Virus record (IMG/VR): IMGVR_UViG_3300045988_136150
Span: 1-59,057 of that record
Direction: 5' to 3' (one strand)
DNA from: a virus
Length of the DNA stretch: 59,057 nucleotides
A program made the translations under genes and the position numbers. This document shows positions 37,053 to 59,057 of the stretch, in pieces. The notes beneath the pieces are model-generated. The model was not told the origin of the DNA. It made no database searches and saw only the letters and a list, made by a program, of their open reading frames with translations. Every line of letters begins with the position of its first letter. Positions within the stretch are counted from its first letter, which is position 1.

Positions 37053-38840
37053 ATGGGTGCTTTTAAGAGTGCAGTAATCACAAAAAAGGGGCAAGCTCTT
37101 TTAGCAAAGGTGGTAGCTGGTACTGCAAAGTTTAACTTTACGAGTATTAAAACCAGCGAAAATACCCTTACTGGAGATCTTGCAAGTAAAACAGGGATTG
37201 GTACTATTAAGCAGACCGCAGATGTAGCCTCTGTTATTCGCCAGAATGACAGTAATGTAAAGGTAAGTGCTAGTTTCTCTAACACTAACCTTAACGCTGG
37301 TTACTATGTGCGTAATATTGGCTTATATGCTACGGATCCGCAGGAGGGAGAAATCTGTTATAGTATTTCCGTAGCAGATGAAAGCGTAGCTACAGCGGAT
37401 TGGATGCCTCCCTTTAACGGTATCGGAGTATCTAGCCTTATGGTGGATCTTGTTACCGCAGTATCTAACGCCTCCAGCGTTAATGTTACGGTGGATCCTA
37501 CAGCTAGTGCAACGGTGGCACAGATCATAGATTTGCAGAGCCAGATTGACGATGTAAGATCTTTTGTAGGCTATGAGGAGGATAACATCTACGGAGTAGA
37601 GGTTGACTTTTCTAGCAAGAAAATTACAAGGATTGCAGGTAACGAACATCTTACCGCAGGTGCAGACTTTGACGGATTGGATCCGTGGGGTGGGCGTAAG
37701 CGTTGTATCCTTACAGATGGGGGCGTAGTGCTTGCTTATCGTGGAGAAACAGGCTACACAGAGGCAGGAGTTACTACACAGGCTATCACAGTAGGAGATA
37801 CTGAGTATCCTAGCGGTACTAAGGTACAGGCAATGGTAGAACAGCCTATCTTTTATGTTAAGGCGGTGCCTGTAAAGGCTAAGAACGCTACTAGCGGTAA
37901 GGGTAAACAGTATGTAAAGGCTAGATTTTATATCAGTCCTACTCCTAAGAGCGGTTTTGTAGTGCCTAGAGCATTTTACGATAACTACGGTATCCCACAG
38001 GATAAAATTTATCTTGCGGCGTATGAGGGGTGTATATGGAGTGACGCCTCTCAAAAATATGATTTATTAGATACTCTACCTATGGAAGTAGAGTTAGATT
38101 TATTCTCTAGTATCGCTAACGCAAAACCAGCCTCAGGACTTTCCAAAAATTTGACTAGAGCAAATACTAGAAAACTTTGTACTAATCGTGGTGCTGGATG
38201 GCAGTTGCATAACATTTTTGCTATGGCTGTTACAGAGTGGCTCCTTATGGTTGAGTATGCAAGCCTTGATCCTCAGCGTAAAGTTGGTAGGGGTATTTGT
38301 GATTTTACAGACGATGGATCTACTAATATGGCTGTGGTTACAGGTGCTACCTCTGGTATCGGTAATGGCTCTGGTATTCCAGACGGAGGCACAGATGGTA
38401 AGTGCTCTGTTACTTATCGTGGAGAGGAAAATCTCTGGGGTAATATCTGGACTTGGCTGGATTGTATCAATATTCTTGCAAAGGGAGATAATTCTATCTG
38501 GCTTACAAAAATCGGTACTACTCCTGTGGATAACACTACAGAGGGCTATGAGTGTATGGATGCTTGGGCTACTCATTCTGGAGGTTATATTAGTGCATTT
38601 GGTATTGATCCAGATCATCCAGAGATCCTTATCCCTACAGAGGCTAGCGGTAGTGATACCTTTGCTGATTATGTTTGGGAAAATCATAATTACAATGGTT
38701 TCTTGGTTGCTCGGCTTGGTGGTAGTTGGGATATTGGCTCTATGTGTGGCTTTTATCTGAATTTGAGGGATGCCTCCTCTGCTCGTGCTCGGAATATCAG
38801 CGGTCGCTTGCTGTATGTGCCTCAATCGAAAGTTGCATAA
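37053..38840 (+). CDS. Tail fibre / receptor-binding protein, target of the DGR (variable C-terminus)
   Basis: N-terminal tail-collar-like ITKKGQALLAKVVAGTAKFNFT. C-terminal NLWGNIWTWLD...RLGGSW...CGFY...GRLLYV is C-type-lectin/FGE-like. The last 41 sense codons overlap the VR. Confidence 0.8.
   Translation: MGAFKSAVITKKGQALLAKVVAGTAKFNFTSIKTSENTLTGDLASKTGIGTIKQTADVASVIRQNDSNVKVSASFSNTNLNAGYYVRNIGLYATDPQEGEICYSISVADESVATADWMPPFNGIGVSSLMVDLVTAVSNASSVNVTVDPTASATVAQIIDLQSQIDDVRSFVGYEEDNIYGVEVDFSSKKITRIAGNEHLTAGADFDGLDPWGGRKRCILTDGGVVLAYRGETGYTEAGVTTQAITVGDTEYPSGTKVQAMVEQPIFYVKAVPVKAKNATSGKGKQYVKARFYISPTPKSGFVVPRAFYDNYGIPQDKIYLAAYEGCIWSDASQKYDLLDTLPMEVELDLFSSIANAKPASGLSKNLTRANTRKLCTNRGAGWQLHNIFAMAVTEWLLMVEYASLDPQRKVGRGICDFTDDGSTNMAVVTGATSGIGNGSGIPDGGTDGKCSVTYRGEENLWGNIWTWLDCINILAKGDNSIWLTKIGTTPVDNTTEGYECMDAWATHSGGYISAFGIDPDHPEILIPTEASGSDTFADYVWENHNYNGFLVARLGGSWDIGSMCGFYLNLRDASSARARNISGRLLYVPQSKVA
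38698..38820 (+). repeat. DGR variable repeat (VR)
   Basis: 123-nt gap-free alignment with 38941-39063. There are 24 mismatches, 23 of them opposite a TR adenine. Confidence 0.9.
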
Positions 38841-38884
38841 ACCAGCGTAAAGTAATTTGTAAATGTTAATATGGGCGGAGATTG

Positions 38885-38908
38885 AGGAGCTGTAACAGGC
38901 TCCTTTTT
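38885..38908 (+). terminator. Hairpin plus T-run downstream of VR (fibre-operon terminator and/or DGR target hairpin)
   Basis: aggagc (38885-38890) pairs with gctcct (38899-38904) around an 8-nt loop, followed by T5. Confidence 0.6.
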
Positions 38909-38940
38909 CAATGCCCTTATTAAGTGGTAGCGGTGAGATA

Positions 38941-39063
38941 GTTTCTTAATTACTAAACTTGGTGGTAAATGGAATAATGGCTCTAAATGTGGCTTTTATC
39001 TGAATTTGAATAATACCTCCTCTAATCGTAATCGGAATATCAGCAGTCACTTACTATATGTGC
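38941..39063 (+). repeat. DGR template repeat (TR)
   Basis: Non-coding copy of the VR, rich in AAT/AAA triplets in the VR frame. Carries adenines where the VR varies. Confidence 0.9.
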
Positions 39064-39327
39064 GTATTAAAAATCAGCTTACAGGTGTTATACCAATGAC
39101 ACTTTTTTATAAAAGTGAGTAACCGCTACCGTGCCTCTTGGCAAAAGATACGCTCTCCTCTGTGTGGAGGAGAGAGGTAAAAAATCGTATAAAGGGTGCC
39201 TATGTGCCAGAAATGGTAAACCCTCTGTAATTGATGTTCGTGAGGGAATACAGTACAGAGCTGAGGTGCTACGGTAGGTAGCTGGCTCCCTTTATACGCA
39301 CATACAGAATACTTTACGAGGTGGGTT
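39064..39327 (+). ncRNA. DGR spacer region between TR and RT (putative structured part of the template RNA)
   Basis: No ORF of 60 aa or more on either strand. Local hairpin 39153-39160/39167-39174. Long-range pairing 39186-39200/39284-39298 (14 of 15). 39122-39130 pairs with 38926-38934 upstream of the TR. Confidence 0.5.
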
Positions 39328-40587
39328 ATGAAAGGTACTGGAGATTTATATTCTAAGATTTACGATATGGATAATCTTAGAACAACCCACAAACACGCTA
39401 GGCGTGGTAAAGGTTGGTATAAGGAGGTTAAACAAGTAGAGAAAAACTTAGACGGAGCTCTAAAGAAACTACAGATCAGCCTTATAGAGCATACCTACAA
39501 TACCTCTCCCTATGAAACCTTTGAGAAAAAGGAAAACGGTAAAATTAGGGAGATATATAAGCTACCCTATTATCCAGATCGTATATGTCAATGGGCTATA
39601 TTGCAGGTAATAGAGCCTTATTTACTAAAAACTATGACCGCAGATACTTATAGTGCTATTCCTAAGAGGGGTAGCCAGCCTATCATAAACAAGCTGAGAG
39701 GTTACGAAAAAGTAATCAAGAAAGATGGGAAAGTGGTAAGGAAATTCTGGGTACCTAGTATTTTAGTGAGTGATCCAGAGGGTACTAAGTATTGCCTCAA
39801 AATGGATGTTAGAAAGTATTATCCTAGCATCATACACGATGTGCTCAAAAAGAGATACAGAGAGCTTTTTAAGGATGAGGAGCTCCTGTGGTTACTGGAT
39901 GAGATTATAGACAGTATCAGCACTTGCCCTTATACAGAGGAAAATGTGGAGATACTGGAGAGGCTTGGTATCTTAGTAAATGTTGTTATAGATACAGAGG
40001 GTAGGGAGTTTATTGAGGGTGTAGGTATTCCTATTGGTAACTATGTTTCACAGTATGACGGAAATTTTAATCTATCTCCGCTGGATCACTGGCTGAAAGA
40101 GGTTAAGGGGATCAAGTATTACTTTCGTTATATGGATGATATGGTTATACTGGGTGGCTCAAAAGAGGAATTACACAAGCTGAAAAGGGAGATAGATGAG
40201 TTTATGGCGGTAGAGCTAAAGCAGGTGCTTAAGCATAACTGGCAGGTATTTCCTACTAAAGTGCGTGGTATTGATTTTGTAGGCTATAGATTTTTCGGAG
40301 AGTACACTCTACTTAGGAAATCTACTTGTAAAAACTTTAAGCGTAAGATGTTAGACATCTCCAGTAAAAGAGAAAACAATGTGAGCCCTAGTTATAGTGA
40401 TTGGTGCTCATTTAATAGCTATGTGGGCTGGCTAAAGTGGTGTGATAGTTGGAGGCTATCTCAAAAGTATATAGAGCCTAACATAGAATATATGCACGAA
40501 TATTACTTAAAGGAGGTAAAAGGTAATGCAGAAATTTGTAAAGGTAAGAAGTACAGCAGAGGAAGTACAGGCGGTGGAAATCAATGA
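39328..40587 (+). CDS. DGR-type reverse transcriptase
   Basis: KIREIYKLPYYPDRICQWAI, MDVRKYYPSI, IPIGNYVSQ ([I/L]GxxxSQ) and RYMDDMVIL (YxDD). Confidence 0.9.
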   Translation: MKGTGDLYSKIYDMDNLRTTHKHARRGKGWYKEVKQVEKNLDGALKKLQISLIEHTYNTSPYETFEKKENGKIREIYKLPYYPDRICQWAILQVIEPYLLKTMTADTYSAIPKRGSQPIINKLRGYEKVIKKDGKVVRKFWVPSILVSDPEGTKYCLKMDVRKYYPSIIHDVLKKRYRELFKDEELLWLLDEIIDSISTCPYTEENVEILERLGILVNVVIDTEGREFIEGVGIPIGNYVSQYDGNFNLSPLDHWLKEVKGIKYYFRYMDDMVILGGSKEELHKLKREIDEFMAVELKQVLKHNWQVFPTKVRGIDFVGYRFFGEYTLLRKSTCKNFKRKMLDISSKRENNVSPSYSDWCSFNSYVGWLKWCDSWRLSQKYIEPNIEYMHEYYLKEVKGNAEICKGKKYSRGSTGGGNQ

Positions 40588-40804
40588 GAGTACCGTAATC
40601 GTTAATAACGGTATCACAGAGGTCCACGATGCAGGTACTAAGGAGGATCCTAGCTCTGGCTTTGATGGCTGGGAGATTGCAGAGCAGATCATCTATGAAA
40701 AAGATGAGTATATCAAGGTAATCTCTGATAAAAACGCTATGCTAGAGCAGGAAACCACTAATCTACAGATCGCTCTTACAGAAGTGTATGAGATGATGCT
40801 TTAA
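40526..40804 (+). CDS. Hypothetical acidic protein (XkdW-like by position)
   Basis: Strong RBS aaggagg. Overlaps the RT 3' end by 62 nt. Precedes XkdX-like genes, as in PBSX. Confidence 0.4.
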   Translation: MQKFVKVRSTAEEVQAVEINESTVIVNNGITEVHDAGTKEDPSSGFDGWEIAEQIIYEKDEYIKVISDKNAMLEQETTNLQIALTEVYEMML

Positions 40805-43550: not shown

Positions 43551-43598
43551 GAGGCTCACAGGAGCCCACAGAGGCAAAATATAAAGGAGAGTTACAGG

Positions 43599-45320
43599 AT
43601 GGCTTACAGGAAAGTAAAGGATCTGTTTGAAACAATAGGATTAAGGGCGGTATTTTATGCCAGAGTATCTACAGCGGAGGAGGAACAGTTAAACGCTATA
43701 GAGCTCCAGATAGAGGAGAATAGAAATATAATCCTCAAAAATAAGTGGAAAAAGGTAGATGAGTATATAGATCGGAGTAAAACTGGTACAATGGTTAAAG
43801 GCAGAGATGAGTACCAGAGGCTCTATGAGGATATGCTGGAGGATAAGTTTGATATTATTGTGATTAAAGATCAAGATCGCCTCCAGCGTAATACTAAGGA
43901 TTGGTACCTCTTTATAGATCGCTTAGTGCAAACAGGAAAGCTCCTGTATATGTATCTGGATGGTAAGTTTTACTCTCCAGATGATGCACTTATTACAGGT
44001 ATTAGAGCTATCATAGCGGAGGAATTTAGCAGAAATCTCTCTAAAAAGCTCCATAATTACCACGCTAACCGTATTGAGAAAGCTAGACAGGGCTTAGAGA
44101 TTGATTTACAGGGTAGCGGTAATGTGTTTGGCTGGGATAAGAAAGATGGTAAATACTATATTAACCCAGATCAAGCTAAGGTAAGGAGGCTTATGTGTGA
44201 GGGCATTATGGCTAGAAAAGGCTCCACACAGATAGCGGATGAGCTTAATAAGGCTGGATACCGTAATACTGTAGGTAATCTGTGGAAACCTATGGATATA
44301 CCTAAGTTTGTGTACGATTGTAAAAATGTTGGTACTATGATTATCAATAAAGAAAAACACGATTTTGAGAGTAAGCAGATAATTAAACTCCCAGAGGAGG
44401 AGTGGGTATATGTAAAGGGTGCCCTCCCTCCTATCGTAACAGAGGAGGAGTGGGATCTTATTTGTAAGATCCACGATGAGAGAGTACTCTCTGTAGGAGC
44501 CGATCACAGAGGCAGAGGTAAAAAGGTAAGCGGATACTCCTTTAGTGGTAAAATAGTTTGCGGAATATGTGGAGCTCCTTACTGGAGAAAACAAAAAACC
44601 TCTAAAGAGGAGTACTGGGTATGCAGTACTAAGCAAACTAAAGGCAGAAAAACCAGAAAGAGAGATAGCGTATTGGGTAAGGCTGGAGAGATCAATGAGT
44701 TAGGCTGTGATAATGAAAATATCTCTTATAATGCTCTTATGAAGGTTATGAGTATCATATCAGAGCGATTACAGGCTAATACAGAGGTTATTAAGGCGGA
44801 TATGGTAAACTGGCTTACCTCACTTAAAAAACAGCTCCAGAGGGCAAATGGAGGCTCTACAGAGGCAGATCTAAAGAGAGAGGAGCTCCGCAAAGATCGG
44901 TTACTGGATGCCCTTTTAGATGGGGTGCTCACTAAAGAGGAATATAGTAAAAAAGCATTAACGATTGATCTTAAAATCACAGAAATAAAAAAAGAAATGC
45001 TGGCTAACCGTAATAGTATAGAGGATATTGCAGAGATAGATAGAGTACTGGCTAATATAGATGCAGAGGTGGCTACCTATCTGGATGAAAATAACCAGCT
45101 TAAGATAGATTTTATCTTAGAACACTTAGAGAGCGTAGAGATCTACCCAGATAAAGTAGTGGTTATGATACCGCTATTTAGTGAGGGTATGGTAGTATAT
45201 AAAACTCAGTATGTATCTGGGGAGAAATGGTGCAAGATACATACTGAAAATATCCATTACCTAAGCTCCTATAAATACTGGAATAAGAAAATAGATCTCT
45301 ATGTGAGGTTAGTAGCATAA
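43599..45320 (+). CDS. Large serine recombinase (integrase)
   Basis: AVFYARVSTAEEEQ (catalytic Ser region), resolvase-like N-terminus, a Cys cluster CGICGAPYW...WVC and a long coiled-coil C-terminus. Confidence 0.85.
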   Translation: MAYRKVKDLFETIGLRAVFYARVSTAEEEQLNAIELQIEENRNIILKNKWKKVDEYIDRSKTGTMVKGRDEYQRLYEDMLEDKFDIIVIKDQDRLQRNTKDWYLFIDRLVQTGKLLYMYLDGKFYSPDDALITGIRAIIAEEFSRNLSKKLHNYHANRIEKARQGLEIDLQGSGNVFGWDKKDGKYYINPDQAKVRRLMCEGIMARKGSTQIADELNKAGYRNTVGNLWKPMDIPKFVYDCKNVGTMIINKEKHDFESKQIIKLPEEEWVYVKGALPPIVTEEEWDLICKIHDERVLSVGADHRGRGKKVSGYSFSGKIVCGICGAPYWRKQKTSKEEYWVCSTKQTKGRKTRKRDSVLGKAGEINELGCDNENISYNALMKVMSIISERLQANTEVIKADMVNWLTSLKKQLQRANGGSTEADLKREELRKDRLLDALLDGVLTKEEYSKKALTIDLKITEIKKEMLANRNSIEDIAEIDRVLANIDAEVATYLDENNQLKIDFILEHLESVEIYPDKVVVMIPLFSEGMVVYKTQYVSGEKWCKIHTENIHYLSSYKYWNKKIDLYVRLVA

Positions 45321-45398: not shown

Positions 45399-47072
45399 AT
45401 GGTATCGGTTGAAAAGCTGGATAAAGGTACCTATTTTGAGGATGCCTTTAAGGTTTCTTTTAAGTACGATCCTACTACGGTAGCTAAGATAAAAAAGCTG
45501 GCGGAAAGGAGATACTTACCAGAGGATAGAGCGTGGGAGATCCCCTCTTATGAGCTCCCTAATCTGGTAGAAACGCTAGGGAGCCATAACATTACCAGTA
45601 ACAGCGGTGTAATGGATGCCCTCAAAACTAAGGAAATAAAGGATAAAAGAGAGGCTACGCAGGAAAGATTAAAAGGCATAAAGCCTATTATAGATTTTCC
45701 TTTTACCACTACTCCCCTCCCTCATCAGATAGAGGCATTTAACTATGGGCTGGAGAGAGATGAGCTCCTTATAGGAGATGAGCAGGGCTTAGGTAAAACT
45801 AAGGAGAGTATAGATATTACCGTAGCCAGAAAAAAGGAGCTCTGTAAGTGCCTTATCGTATGCGGTGTAAACTCCGTTAAGTATAACTGGGAGGCAGAGA
45901 TTAGGATCCACTCTAAGGAAAAAAGTGTTATGCTGGATCAAAAAACAATGCCTCTAAGAGTAAAAGCTCTTAATGAGTGGCTTAGAGGATCTGAGTATTA
46001 TGCTATTATCAATATTGAGAGCCTCCGTAATGAGGCTGTGCAGGATGCTATATACTTAGGCATTAAGGATGGATATATAGGCTGTATTATCGTAGATGAG
46101 ATCCATAAGGCTAAGAATGGTAACAGCCAGCAAGGGAAAGCTCTTAGGATGCTTAAGAGCCCTGTTAAAATAGGTTTATCTGGTACTCCTATGAATAAGG
46201 CAGAGGATCTATGGAATATCCTTACTTGGTTAGGGATTGAAAAGAGGAGCTTTTACAGTTTTCGTAATGCCTACTGTGTTATGGGAGGATACGGAGGCTA
46301 TAAAGTAGTAGGACATAAAAACCTAGAGAGCCTCAATGCTGAGTTAAATAAAGTTATGCTCCGTAGAAAGAAAGAGGAGGTACTGGATCTACCACCTAAG
46401 ATCCACTCCACAGAGTATGTAGAACTTACTAAGAAACAGCAGGTACTCTATAGAGATATTAAAAATGGTATTATAGAGGATATGGAGAATATCCTAGCCT
46501 CTGTTAATCCGCTTAGCTGTACTCTTAGATTAAGACAGCTTACAGGAGGTATGTTTACAGAGGATAACCCTAAGTTGGAGCGTATTATGGATATGCTCTC
46601 TGAGGAGATTATCCCTAACGGTTATAAGGCTATTATTTTCTCTCAATGGGAGCAAATAGCCAGCCTCTATTATGAGGCGTTAAAGGAGTATAACCCTGTA
46701 TATATTGTGGGTAAGGTATCTCCAGAGGATAGACAGAAAGAGGTAGAGCGTTTCCAAAATGATCCTAATTGTAAGCTGGCTGTAGGTACTATAGGGGCTA
46801 TGGGTACAGGATTAACCCTTAATAAAGCCTCCTATGTATTCTTTATAGATAAACTCTGGAATAGTGGAGAAAATGCACAGGCGGAGGATCGTGCTCATCG
46901 TATCGGTACCGCTGGTACTGTAAATGTTATCTCTATGGTGGCTAAGGGATCTGTAGATGAGGGTGTGGAGGAGTACCTCTTAGAAAATCAAGATCTTTTT
47001 GATAGAGTAGTAGATGGCAAAGGATCTAAGGCAGATATTAAAACAATTCTTAATAAGCTGTTGAAACTGTAA
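45399..47072 (+). CDS. SNF2-family helicase
   Basis: GDEQGLGKT, VDEIHKAKN (DExH) and QAEDRAHRIGT. Confidence 0.85.
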   Translation: MVSVEKLDKGTYFEDAFKVSFKYDPTTVAKIKKLAERRYLPEDRAWEIPSYELPNLVETLGSHNITSNSGVMDALKTKEIKDKREATQERLKGIKPIIDFPFTTTPLPHQIEAFNYGLERDELLIGDEQGLGKTKESIDITVARKKELCKCLIVCGVNSVKYNWEAEIRIHSKEKSVMLDQKTMPLRVKALNEWLRGSEYYAIINIESLRNEAVQDAIYLGIKDGYIGCIIVDEIHKAKNGNSQQGKALRMLKSPVKIGLSGTPMNKAEDLWNILTWLGIEKRSFYSFRNAYCVMGGYGGYKVVGHKNLESLNAELNKVMLRRKKEEVLDLPPKIHSTEYVELTKKQQVLYRDIKNGIIEDMENILASVNPLSCTLRLRQLTGGMFTEDNPKLERIMDMLSEEIIPNGYKAIIFSQWEQIASLYYEALKEYNPVYIVGKVSPEDRQKEVERFQNDPNCKLAVGTIGAMGTGLTLNKASYVFFIDKLWNSGENAQAEDRAHRIGTAGTVNVISMVAKGSVDEGVEEYLLENQDLFDRVVDGKGSKADIKTILNKLLKL

Positions 47073-58937: not shown

Positions 58938-59057
58938 ATGGAGTTTATCAAGAGCCCACTTAATTATACAGGTGGAAAATATAAGCTCCTCCCACAGCTC
59001 CTAGAGCTGTTTCCTACAAATATTGATACCTTTGTCGATTTGTTTGCAGGGGGGGGG
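58938..59057 (+). CDS. 5' end of the Dam-like methyltransferase gene (continues across the circular junction into 47..797)
   Basis: MEFIKSPLNYTGGKYKLLPQLLELFPTNIDTFVDLFAGGG. RBS aaggagg. Runs off the window inside the G-run. Confidence 0.8.
   Translation, partial: MEFIKSPLNYTGGKYKLLPQLLELFPTNIDTFVDLFAGGG
59003..59057. repeat. Terminal direct overlap (copy of 1-55)
   Basis: Identical by eye to the first 55 bases. Confidence 0.9.

Follow-up and report, generated by a model that had tools for sequence, protein, structure and literature searches.

A diversity-generating retroelement with no recognized accessory gene at the tail-fibre tip of a temperate contractile-tailed phage

Introduction

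The diversity-generating retroelement (DGR) of Bordetella phage BPP-1 consists of the target gene mtd with its variable repeat (VR), avd as its accessory gene, the template repeat (TR) and the reverse transcriptase (RT) gene brt. An Avd, HRDC or MSL accessory is found in about 70% of DGRs and is essential in BPP-1, but it is not defining for all classes. In DGRs generally the VR usually stands at the 3' end of the target gene, the variable residues of which are borne by a C-type-lectin or Ig-like fold. The RTs of these elements carry the motif [I/V/L]GxxxSQ, which replaces QGxxxSP (PMC7826257), and an initiation of mutagenic homing (IMH) sequence has been described for nearly all DGRs as the 3' limit of information transfer, BPP-1 having the pair IMH/IMH* (PMC5758913). 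Accessory-free elements, termed 'Architecture A', make up 29% of DGRs, and for the avd-less 'Lineage 3' homing independent of Avd has been proposed (Wu et al., 2018; PMC5758913). Here we analyse a 59,057-nt stretch of viral DNA (IMG/VR record IMGVR_UViG_3300045988_136150, positions 1 to 59,057), which we call the window, and a DGR located at and beyond its tail-fibre gene. We put at roughly 0.93 the probability that this is a complete, accessory-gene-free DGR, composed of a target gene with its VR, a TR, a structured spacer RNA and an RT gene, on a temperate contractile-tailed phage.

The element had first been proposed from the nucleotide sequence and a list of its open reading frames (ORFs) by hand alignment (the original prediction), and the claims made then are taken up below where the results bear on them.

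Repeat anatomy and adenine bias

A computed alignment pairs the VR and the TR without gaps at an offset of 243, and independent repeat finding calls a single 126-nt direct repeat (38695-38820/38938-39063, spacing 243, 80% identity). The VR (38695-38820, plus strand) takes in the last 42 codons of the fibre gene but six and ends 20 nt from the fibre stop codon. The TR (38938-39063, plus strand) follows after a gap of 117 nt and lies 264 nt upstream of the RT gene on the same strand; no ORF of at least 40 residues in the ORF list of the window covers it, in keeping with the proposal that it is non-coding. Neither a second VR-like copy nor a third copy of the repeat was found anywhere in the window.

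The original prediction had aligned a 123-nt VR (38698-38820) with a TR at 38941-39063 without gaps and had counted 24 mismatches, 23 of them opposite TR adenines and one at T39011/G38768, with 17 differing VR codons, 14 of them non-synonymous. All of these counts are reproduced. The homology in fact extends a further 3 nt upstream, to 38695/38938, where there is one more A-to-G difference; over the full 126 nt, 24 of the 25 mismatches lie at TR adenines. The bias is thus present in the computed alignment, with a hypergeometric p = 2.5e-14 for at least 23 of 24 mismatches on A over the 123 nt. The earlier estimate of about 37 adenines in the 123-nt TR, roughly 60% of them substituted, stands as a count (37 adenines, 62%), but four of the 23 substitutions are fixed IMH-type differences and not fresh mutagenesis.

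The full TR holds 39 adenines. Codon positions 1 and 2 of the fibre frame take most of the TR adenines (18, 14 and 6 at positions 1, 2 and 3, respectively); the AAT/AAA-rich reading of the TR in the fibre frame, remarked upon previously, amounts to three AAA and eight AAT codons. The mutable zone (approximately 38697-38799 in the VR) contains 34 of the adenines, distributed over 19 codons, which corresponds to about 10^18 possible proteins.

The four fixed differences (38802, 38806, 38810 and 38813) lie in a block at the 3' boundary of the VR (38800-38822, plus strand; GCGGTCGCTTGCTGTATGTGCC), the copy of which at the 3' end of the TR (39043-39064) differs from it by these four A-to-G changes. 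Of 27 VRs of the family, 24-26 have G at these positions, where the TRs have A, and the four are unchanged in all ten sequences of the population set described below; they are therefore not products of mutagenesis. By analogy with BPP-1, the block at 38800-38822 would behave like an IMH, with an IMH* in the TR, and would mark the 3' limit of information transfer.

Sequence and fold prediction place one hairpin in the VR-TR gap (38886-38908, plus strand), with the stem GGAGC-TGTAACAG-GCTCC at 38886-38903 followed by TTTTT, 46 nt past the fibre stop codon and 66 nt after the VR. Of 108 distinct VR-TR gaps in relatives, 34 contain a hairpin with a T-run. A GC-rich inverted repeat, or cruciform, stands just downstream of the IMH in about a third of DGRs. 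The hairpin at 38886-38908 looks like a terminator; a scan tool raised no flag there. The other candidate role is that of a cruciform aiding homing.

Diversification of the VR among genomes of the same phage

An exact look-up of the 92-residue protein encoded directly after the RT (ORF92, described below) returned nine places from different sequencing runs, one of which is the source contig of the window itself (ena:ERZ27256482:k119_283171; 59,121 bp). The population set accordingly comprises ten sequences, the window and the nine loci, eight of these loci being other assemblies of the same phage. The comparison is one between assemblies and not of read-level heterogeneity inside one sample. 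The original prediction had asked whether variation in mapped reads is confined to positions opposite TR adenines; here the same question is answered from the eight other assemblies.

The loci are more than 99% identical outside the VR, and the TR is identical in 10 of 10 sequences. Of the variable columns, 32 lie within the VR (126 nt) and 30 in the rest of the alignment, some 6,150 columns (Fisher p = 2e-39); all but two of those in the VR fall on TR adenines (30 of 32, p = 1e-18). The ten sequences carry eight distinct VR alleles, and the variable residues of the fibre, 16 in all, lie between residues 552 and 583. Five of the eight other assemblies carry only 3-5 substitutions relative to the window outside the VR, over up to 6.3 kb, and the sister genomes differ from it at 14-22 positions inside the VR. 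Since such VR differences are found alongside an identical TR, spacer and IMH-like block, homing has been very recent on the scale of lineage divergence. The element homes in nature, its VR being diversified while the TR stays invariant.

More distant comparisons give the same picture. A locus with an RT 94% identical to that of the window (L001) has the same TR and a VR that differs at 20 positions, 19 of which are TR adenines; the twentieth is G38768, private to the window. In six further groups of contigs with a common TR and differing VRs, the variable columns at adenines are 24/26, 20/20, 22/22, 26/26, 22/22 and 23/23. Within the population there are two VR changes at other bases, both T-to-G: that at 38768, private to the window contig, and one at the equivalent of 38699, private to locus L183. 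They are compatible either with rare RT errors at non-adenine positions or with ordinary point mutations.

An exact search with a 41-nt core of the TR found no match in the JGI metagenome collection, the same phage being reached through exact-protein look-ups, and an exact look-up of the RT protein returned the window's own contig as the sole distinct place.

The substitutions at adenines are dominated by A-to-G, which accounts for 64% family-wide (134 VR/TR pairs) and for 70% at the variable positions of this phage. The complex of the BPP-1 RT (bRT) with Avd misincorporates in vitro in the order dA > dC > dG, favouring A-to-T (PMC7826257). The skew seen here could reflect a preference of the enzyme or selection. 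Editing of A to I in the RNA as its sole cause was rejected, because about 30% of the substitutions are A-to-T or A-to-C.

The reverse transcriptase and its relatives

The RT gene (39328-40587, plus strand) encodes 419 residues and carries, as had been pointed out, the motifs IGNYVSQ (residues 236-242, nt 40033-40053) and YMDD (residues 268-271, nt 40129-40140). Among solved structures its best match is the Bordetella DGR RT (PDB entry 8ub7, E = 6e-23), with retron-type and group II RTs at 6e-10 or worse. The alignment with 8ub7 pairs EGVGIPIGNYVSQ with EGVGIPIGSLTSQ, which is the [I/V/L]GxxxSQ signature, and YMDD follows. The ranking of the structures and the motif together bear out the assignment of this RT to the DGR class and not to the retron or group II classes. 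In Pfam the protein matches the generic RVT_1 family and no other, and in PHROG it belongs to phrog_1423 (E = 3e-119).

The NCBIfam models are matched below threshold only: the group II model TIGR04416 with 73 bits against a cut-off of 300, the retron St85 model with 31 bits against 235, and also Drt3a and Drt2. No group II intron or retron RNA family was found in 38600-40700 at E <= 1. A group II intron has ribozyme domains on either side of an RT/maturase ORF, and a retron an msr-msd RNA upstream of its RT, usually with an effector gene; neither RNA is matched in this range, and the RT falls below the cut-offs of both models. The RNA upstream of the RT follows a TR whose homologue is a coding VR, an arrangement that retrons do not have.

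Relatives of the RT are numerous, with 447 confirmed in IMG/VR. In a set of species-representative genomes, 95 of 179 candidate stretches encode one, mostly metagenome-assembled genomes of Lachnospiraceae, Roseburia, Blautia and other Clostridia. Repeat detection from exact 10-mer seeds missed the closest relatives because the substitutions are too dense; VR/TR pairs were found by a seed-free scan in which the adenines of one copy are treated as wildcards. A pair is present in 134 of 161 sequences (133 of 160 fetched loci and the window), the adenine-bearing copy always being the one proximal to the RT, and most of the failures are loci with too little upstream DNA. Family-wide, 3037 of 3129 VR/TR mismatches are at TR adenines, and most fetched loci have the [ILV]GxxxSQ...YxDD motif. 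Across the pairs the VR-TR gap has a median of 117 nt and the TR-RT spacer one of 180 nt, so that the whole RT family is without a gene between VR and TR. Among deposited phages the closest RT is that of Psychrobacillus phage Perkons (45% identity); a nucleotide search of the deposited phages in INPHARED gave no match to the window.

The spacer RNA

The TR-RT spacer (39064-39327, plus strand; 264 nt) is a conserved structured RNA with five helices: P1 (39132-39135/39140-39143), P2 (approximately 39153-39161/39166-39174), the long-range P3 (39192-39200/39284-39292), P4 (39205-39209/39214-39218) and P5 (39268-39272/39278-39282). A conserved tail, GCACAUACA, stands at approximately 39297-39305. 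In an alignment of 14 spacers of the window clade the five helices comprise 30 pairs, and in 19 of these there are compensatory double changes. Of the cells of this alignment 95.8% are paired, a level that none of 500 shuffles attains (81%); when the partners are slid, the figure is 44-61%.

Weinberg et al. (2017) assigned the RNA motif RT-10 to the BPP-1 spacer and only speculated on the other RT motifs, RT-17 being left unassigned to DGRs (PMC5737381). In the window the Rfam family RT-17 (RF03020) gives a weak match at 39127-39194, with 23.7 bits against a gathering threshold of 40.4, and by this criterion the spacer is not a member. In relatives, however, RT-17 scores above the gathering threshold at the same position (48-61 bits; L033 3895-3985, L037 3881-3969 and L042 3875-3983), which implies that the RT-17 motif, like RT-10 in BPP-1, is the RNA of a DGR spacer. 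The window spacer retains the 5' hairpin of RT-17, ACCGUGCCUCUUGGCAAAA, and its GCAnAUACA-type 3' tail, but the core has been replaced and expanded, with five helices over about 175 nt compared with about 95 nt in the model. It would work like RT-17 while falling outside the Rfam family. By analogy with the BPP-1 spacer, a scaffold and primer for cDNA synthesis, we take it to be the likely functional counterpart, which would also bind the RT.

The target fibre and its lectin-fold tip

The target gene (37053-38840, plus strand) encodes a tail fibre of 595 residues, which over its full length matches phrog_5302, 'tail protein' (E = 1e-144), and is placed after the genes for baseplate J and a Mu gp48-like protein. 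The N-terminus is of the tail-collar fibre type, with a weak Pfam match to Phage_tail_fib. The C-terminal 266 or so residues form a lectin-fold tip that contains the VR. On the C-terminal half of the fibre Pfam finds nothing, FGE-sulfatase and DUF1566 included, and the homologues of the tip are unannotated; a sequence profile of the tip compared with PDB sequences reached a best E of 0.96, which is not significant.

Structure comparison is more informative. An AlphaFold2 (AF2) model of residues 330-595, built from 89 sequences, has a predicted local distance difference test score (pLDDT) of 89.4 and a predicted TM-score (pTM) of 0.88. In a Foldseek search of the PDB its best match is TaqVP, the variable protein of the Thermus aquaticus DGR (5vf4; E = 4e-8, probability 1.0, TM-score normalized to the query (TMq) 0.55), followed by Mtd of BPP-1 (1yu1; probability 0.75, TMq 0.32); C-type lectins and an FGE-like enzyme come after Mtd with non-significant scores. 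In the viral structure library BFVD the fold recurs at the tips of many tail collar fibres of gut phages (TMq up to 0.83), and the matches include the fibres cr55_1, cr6_1 and cr7_1 (TMq 0.71-0.76) of crAss-like phages, in which related RTs are also found, as well as TvpA-annotated and FGE-like proteins. Because the tip model matches TaqVP, Mtd and DGR-linked viral proteins, the C-type-lectin fold proposed for the variable region is supported, with Pfam silent. The scaffold motif proposed with it, GGSW, needs amendment: the serine is itself variable, being R or A in other alleles, and the invariant part is LGG-x-W.

From its position and by analogy, the tip would bind the host receptor, and variation in the VR would then bear on receptor binding and host range.

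Accessory genes and ORF92

No PF05635 (Avd) or other accessory family was detected by Pfam in any window ORF of 60-215 residues, although Avd genes are poorly conserved and a very divergent one may escape such a search, and Pfam and NCBIfam find no known accessory among the neighbours of the cassette. Matches to the Pfam family 'Serglycin' in the scan of 60-215-residue ORFs were rejected as artefacts of Gly-Ser linkers. With a VR-TR gap of 117 nt and a spacer of 264 nt there is no room for a gene between VR, TR and RT. The cassette, judged by its layout, is consistent with the accessory-free Architecture A. Since BPP-1 requires Avd and none was detected here, the biochemistry of BPP-1 is not wholly transferable to this locus.

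Directly after the RT, with a start that overlaps its 3' end by 62 nt, lies ORF92 (40526-40804, plus strand), a small acidic protein of 92 residues (isoelectric point (pI) 4.2; phrog_18126, unknown function). It occupies this position in 101 of 177 loci. When ORF92 served as the query, all 17 of the retrieved loci showed it there, and so did 10 of 11 contexts of three further members of its family, although fibre N-termini and lysis cassettes differ. Among the ORF92 contexts sampled, the exception is a short contig (L196), in which the place of the RT is taken by two unannotated ORFs of 224 and 140 residues. The family has 3,068 members, none of them annotated. An AF2 model (pLDDT 89.7) shows a four-stranded sheet and one long helix; there is no fold match in the PDB and no Pfam match even at E <= 5, and a protein search returned nothing.

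Transitive profile links (E of about 6e-5, against E >= 0.07 for reversed-sequence controls) connect ORF92 with post-RT ORFs in a siphovirus-type context (L204) and with acidic post-RT ORFs of Bacteroidales. An acidic accessory of 160-169 residues, 'CH1', has been described (PMC5758913), and ORF92, with its 92 residues, may or may not be a distant relative of these Bacteroidales genes. An Avd-like identity was rejected, ORF92 being acidic and built as a sheet with a single helix, not as a helical bundle; an XkdW-like tail-module gene is not supported by Pfam (E <= 5) or by the PDB fold search. As the lectin tip is always accompanied by the RT, linkage gives no means of telling an RT accessory from a protein that partners the tip. 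A minimal element in two relatives (L200/L201) has target and RT without an ORF92-type ORF. We regard ORF92 as a candidate DGR accessory factor or fibre-tip partner, its membership of the DGR being uncertain. That it is a dedicated accessory, translationally coupled to the RT, which functionally replaces Avd together with the expanded RT-17-type RNA and an A-to-G-shifted RT, seems to us doubtful.

Proposed mechanism and alternative explanations

By homology with BPP-1, the TR and the structured spacer would be transcribed together and the RT would copy the TR into cDNA from the end proximal to the spacer and IMH*. Misincorporation would occur opposite template adenines, here mostly of dC, to give A-to-G on the sense strand, and the cDNA would replace the VR upstream of the fixed block at 38800-38822. 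In this way as many as 19 or so codons of a solvent-facing lectin-fold tip would be rewritten, to give about 10^18 variants of the protein; the TR adenines are placed in AAT and AAA codons such that the tip codons would change while the scaffold stays constant. The rewritten tip would presumably alter the host surface ligand bound by the phage. The priming chemistry, the mechanism of homing and independence from Avd are modelled here on the known systems and would apply by analogy.

Several points weigh against a complete and active accessory-free DGR. There are two non-adenine differences in the VR (G38768 in the window and 38699 in L183); the window yielded neither an Avd nor any other known accessory; no sigma-70-like promoter is predicted for a TR-RT transcript; and the A-to-G share of 64-70% is unlike the in vitro spectrum of bRT-Avd. 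The cDNA, heterogeneity within this sample and an effect on adsorption are predictions of this reading.

Some of these points would also suit a fossil DGR, in which the cassette has been inherited by this genome but no longer homes and the VR is a fixed allele. The private G38768 could then be a point mutation that arose after the last homing, and the want of a predicted promoter upstream of the TR and of an Avd would be in keeping with decay. The RT ORF is intact, however, and the exact protein is encoded on five contigs; the TR, spacer and IMH-like block are the same as in the sister genomes, from which the window differs by 14-22 substitutions in the VR and 3-5 outside it. We therefore consider a fossil improbable.

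A partial duplication of the 3' end of the fibre gene, decaying by drift or A+T pressure beside an unrelated RT of another class, fares much worse. The sub-threshold NCBIfam matches to group II, Drt3a, Drt2 and retron St85 models and the generic RVT_1 assignment would allow another kind of RT, but in the PDB the Bordetella DGR RT leads all other matches by 13 orders of magnitude, group II and retron RNAs are missing from 38600-40700 at E <= 1, and the layout recurs in 133 of 160 relatives. Drift, for its part, cannot confine 23 of 24 differences to a single base in one of the copies, nor hold that copy identical in ten genomes while the other varies at those very positions. We give this explanation almost no credence.

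Phage fibre tips are often mosaic and under diversifying selection. Diversifying selection with recombination between fibre alleles in place of retrohoming, to which this habit and the exchange of N-terminal fibre parts among related loci lend some colour, is no more credible, for it would not limit the variable nucleotides to TR adenines (30 of 32), spare synonymous non-adenine sites within 126 nt or explain an invariant non-coding template.

Phage genome and side observations

Positions 1-55 of the window are exactly repeated at 59003-59057, and the assembly is therefore circularly closed, with 59,002 bp of unique sequence; a run of at least ten G stands at about 47-57, at the circular junction. 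The phage encodes a terminase, an SPP1-type portal, a Mu F protein and an SU10-type capsid protein. Sheath, tube, an XkdN-like chaperone, a YqbQ-like protein and baseplate J are all present, which agrees with the PBSX-like contractile tail proposed earlier. Also encoded are an XhlA-like protein, a holin, an amidase, regulators of the Rha and CI types and a large serine recombinase; the gene at 45399-47072 encodes an SNF2-family helicase and not a serine recombinase. The phage is temperate, contractile-tailed and of gut type, and its host is a low-GC member of the Bacillota, probably of the Lachnospiraceae.

The polymorphism of the ten population sequences outside the VR is mostly clustered at 43571-43800 of the window, in an intergenic region and the start of the serine recombinase gene, and the length of the recombinase varies between contigs from 546 to 573 residues. 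Both observations suggest that the integration module is a second variable spot. Among related loci, fibres exchange their N-terminal parts as well, with lengths of 531, 608 and 714 residues.

Some relatives of the cassette stand in other surroundings. The element in L200/L201 is small and lacks virion genes. It encodes helix-turn-helix regulators, a large serine recombinase and a primase-like protein with a Zn ribbon; its DGR, of the same family, combines a 214-residue lectin-only target with a short RT of 301 residues, and ORF92 is missing. Perhaps this is a satellite-like element, or else a degraded one. In L202, a 441-residue protein (P0014, 3501-4826) resembles the fibre tip, with 69% identity across 75% of the query, and also carries a Pfam SU10 major-capsid annotation; no RT adjoins it, and the neighbours become ABC-transporter genes within about 1 kb downstream. 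The arrangement has the look of a deletion fusion within a prophage that is decaying.

Distant subclades of the RT (L100, L101, L103, L109, L110, L118, L121, L135, L140, L142 and L145), from the Bacteroidota, Desulfobacterales, Saccharibacteria and others, have another conserved ORF directly after the RT. It encodes approximately 100-137 residues, is mostly neutral to basic (pI 6.2-9.5) and has the motifs FSDFAEE...YIVFTGS...PF.TTIKK. Profile comparison finds ORF92 and this ORF unrelated.

Significance

The DGR described here is of a well-known kind, and current understanding is not overturned by it. What is of interest on the new side is the placement of RT-17-type RNAs as DGR spacers, the RT-coupled ORF92 family and the spectrum skewed to A-to-G. 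The analysis pinpoints fibre residues 552-583 as the putative receptor-binding tip and predicts a large repertoire of binding specificities in the phage population, which is relevant to the prediction of host range and to the matching of phages with hosts in gut metagenomes. It also matters for the reading of assemblies, in which an assembled VR would be the consensus of a mixed population.

The locus offers a clean natural example of a DGR in which no Avd is found, with recent activity, an IMH-like boundary and a covarying spacer RNA, and at about 1.9 kb with one protein, or two with ORF92, it would be a compact candidate for reconstitution and for engineered targeted diversification. It could also serve to address retrohoming without Avd, a question that Wu et al. 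did not settle in 2018.

Comparison with known systems

As in BPP-1, the diversified region is the C-terminus of a lectin-fold tail-fibre tip and substitutions are specific to adenines; the [I/V/L]GxxxSQ motif is present in the RT, with 8ub7 as the closest structure, and the fixed 3' block of the VR differs from its TR copy in the manner of IMH and IMH*. The differences from BPP-1 are nevertheless several. The window has no detected avd and its VR-TR gap is just 117 nt. Its RT has 419 residues compared with 328, with about 55 extra residues between fingers and palm and a longer C-terminus. The spacer RNA is RT-17-like, that of BPP-1 being RT-10, and the substitutions are dominated by A-to-G where A-to-T would be expected from bRT in vitro. 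The hairpin is terminator-like and stands 66 nt after the VR, and the host is a low-GC member of the Bacillota, probably of the Lachnospiraceae.

With Architecture A and Lineage 3 (PMC5758913) the locus shares the core of target with VR, TR and RT, the lack of avd, HRDC or MSL genes, a TR directly upstream of the RT and the rarity of non-adenine substitutions. The crAssphage LMMB (PMC7290462) and Lactobacillus phage LBR48 have homologous RTs (33-38% identity over about 90% of the length), and crAss-like phages have tail fibres with the same predicted tip fold; their virion, however, is podovirus-like, in contrast to the contractile tail here, and the RT identity is low. With TaqVP (5vf4) and Mtd (1yu0-1yu3) the tip shares the C-type-lectin fold and the position of the variable residues at the C-terminal end, and there is a weak likeness in motif (GNiWeWv and GG-W...G...R), although sequence identity is just 13-14%.

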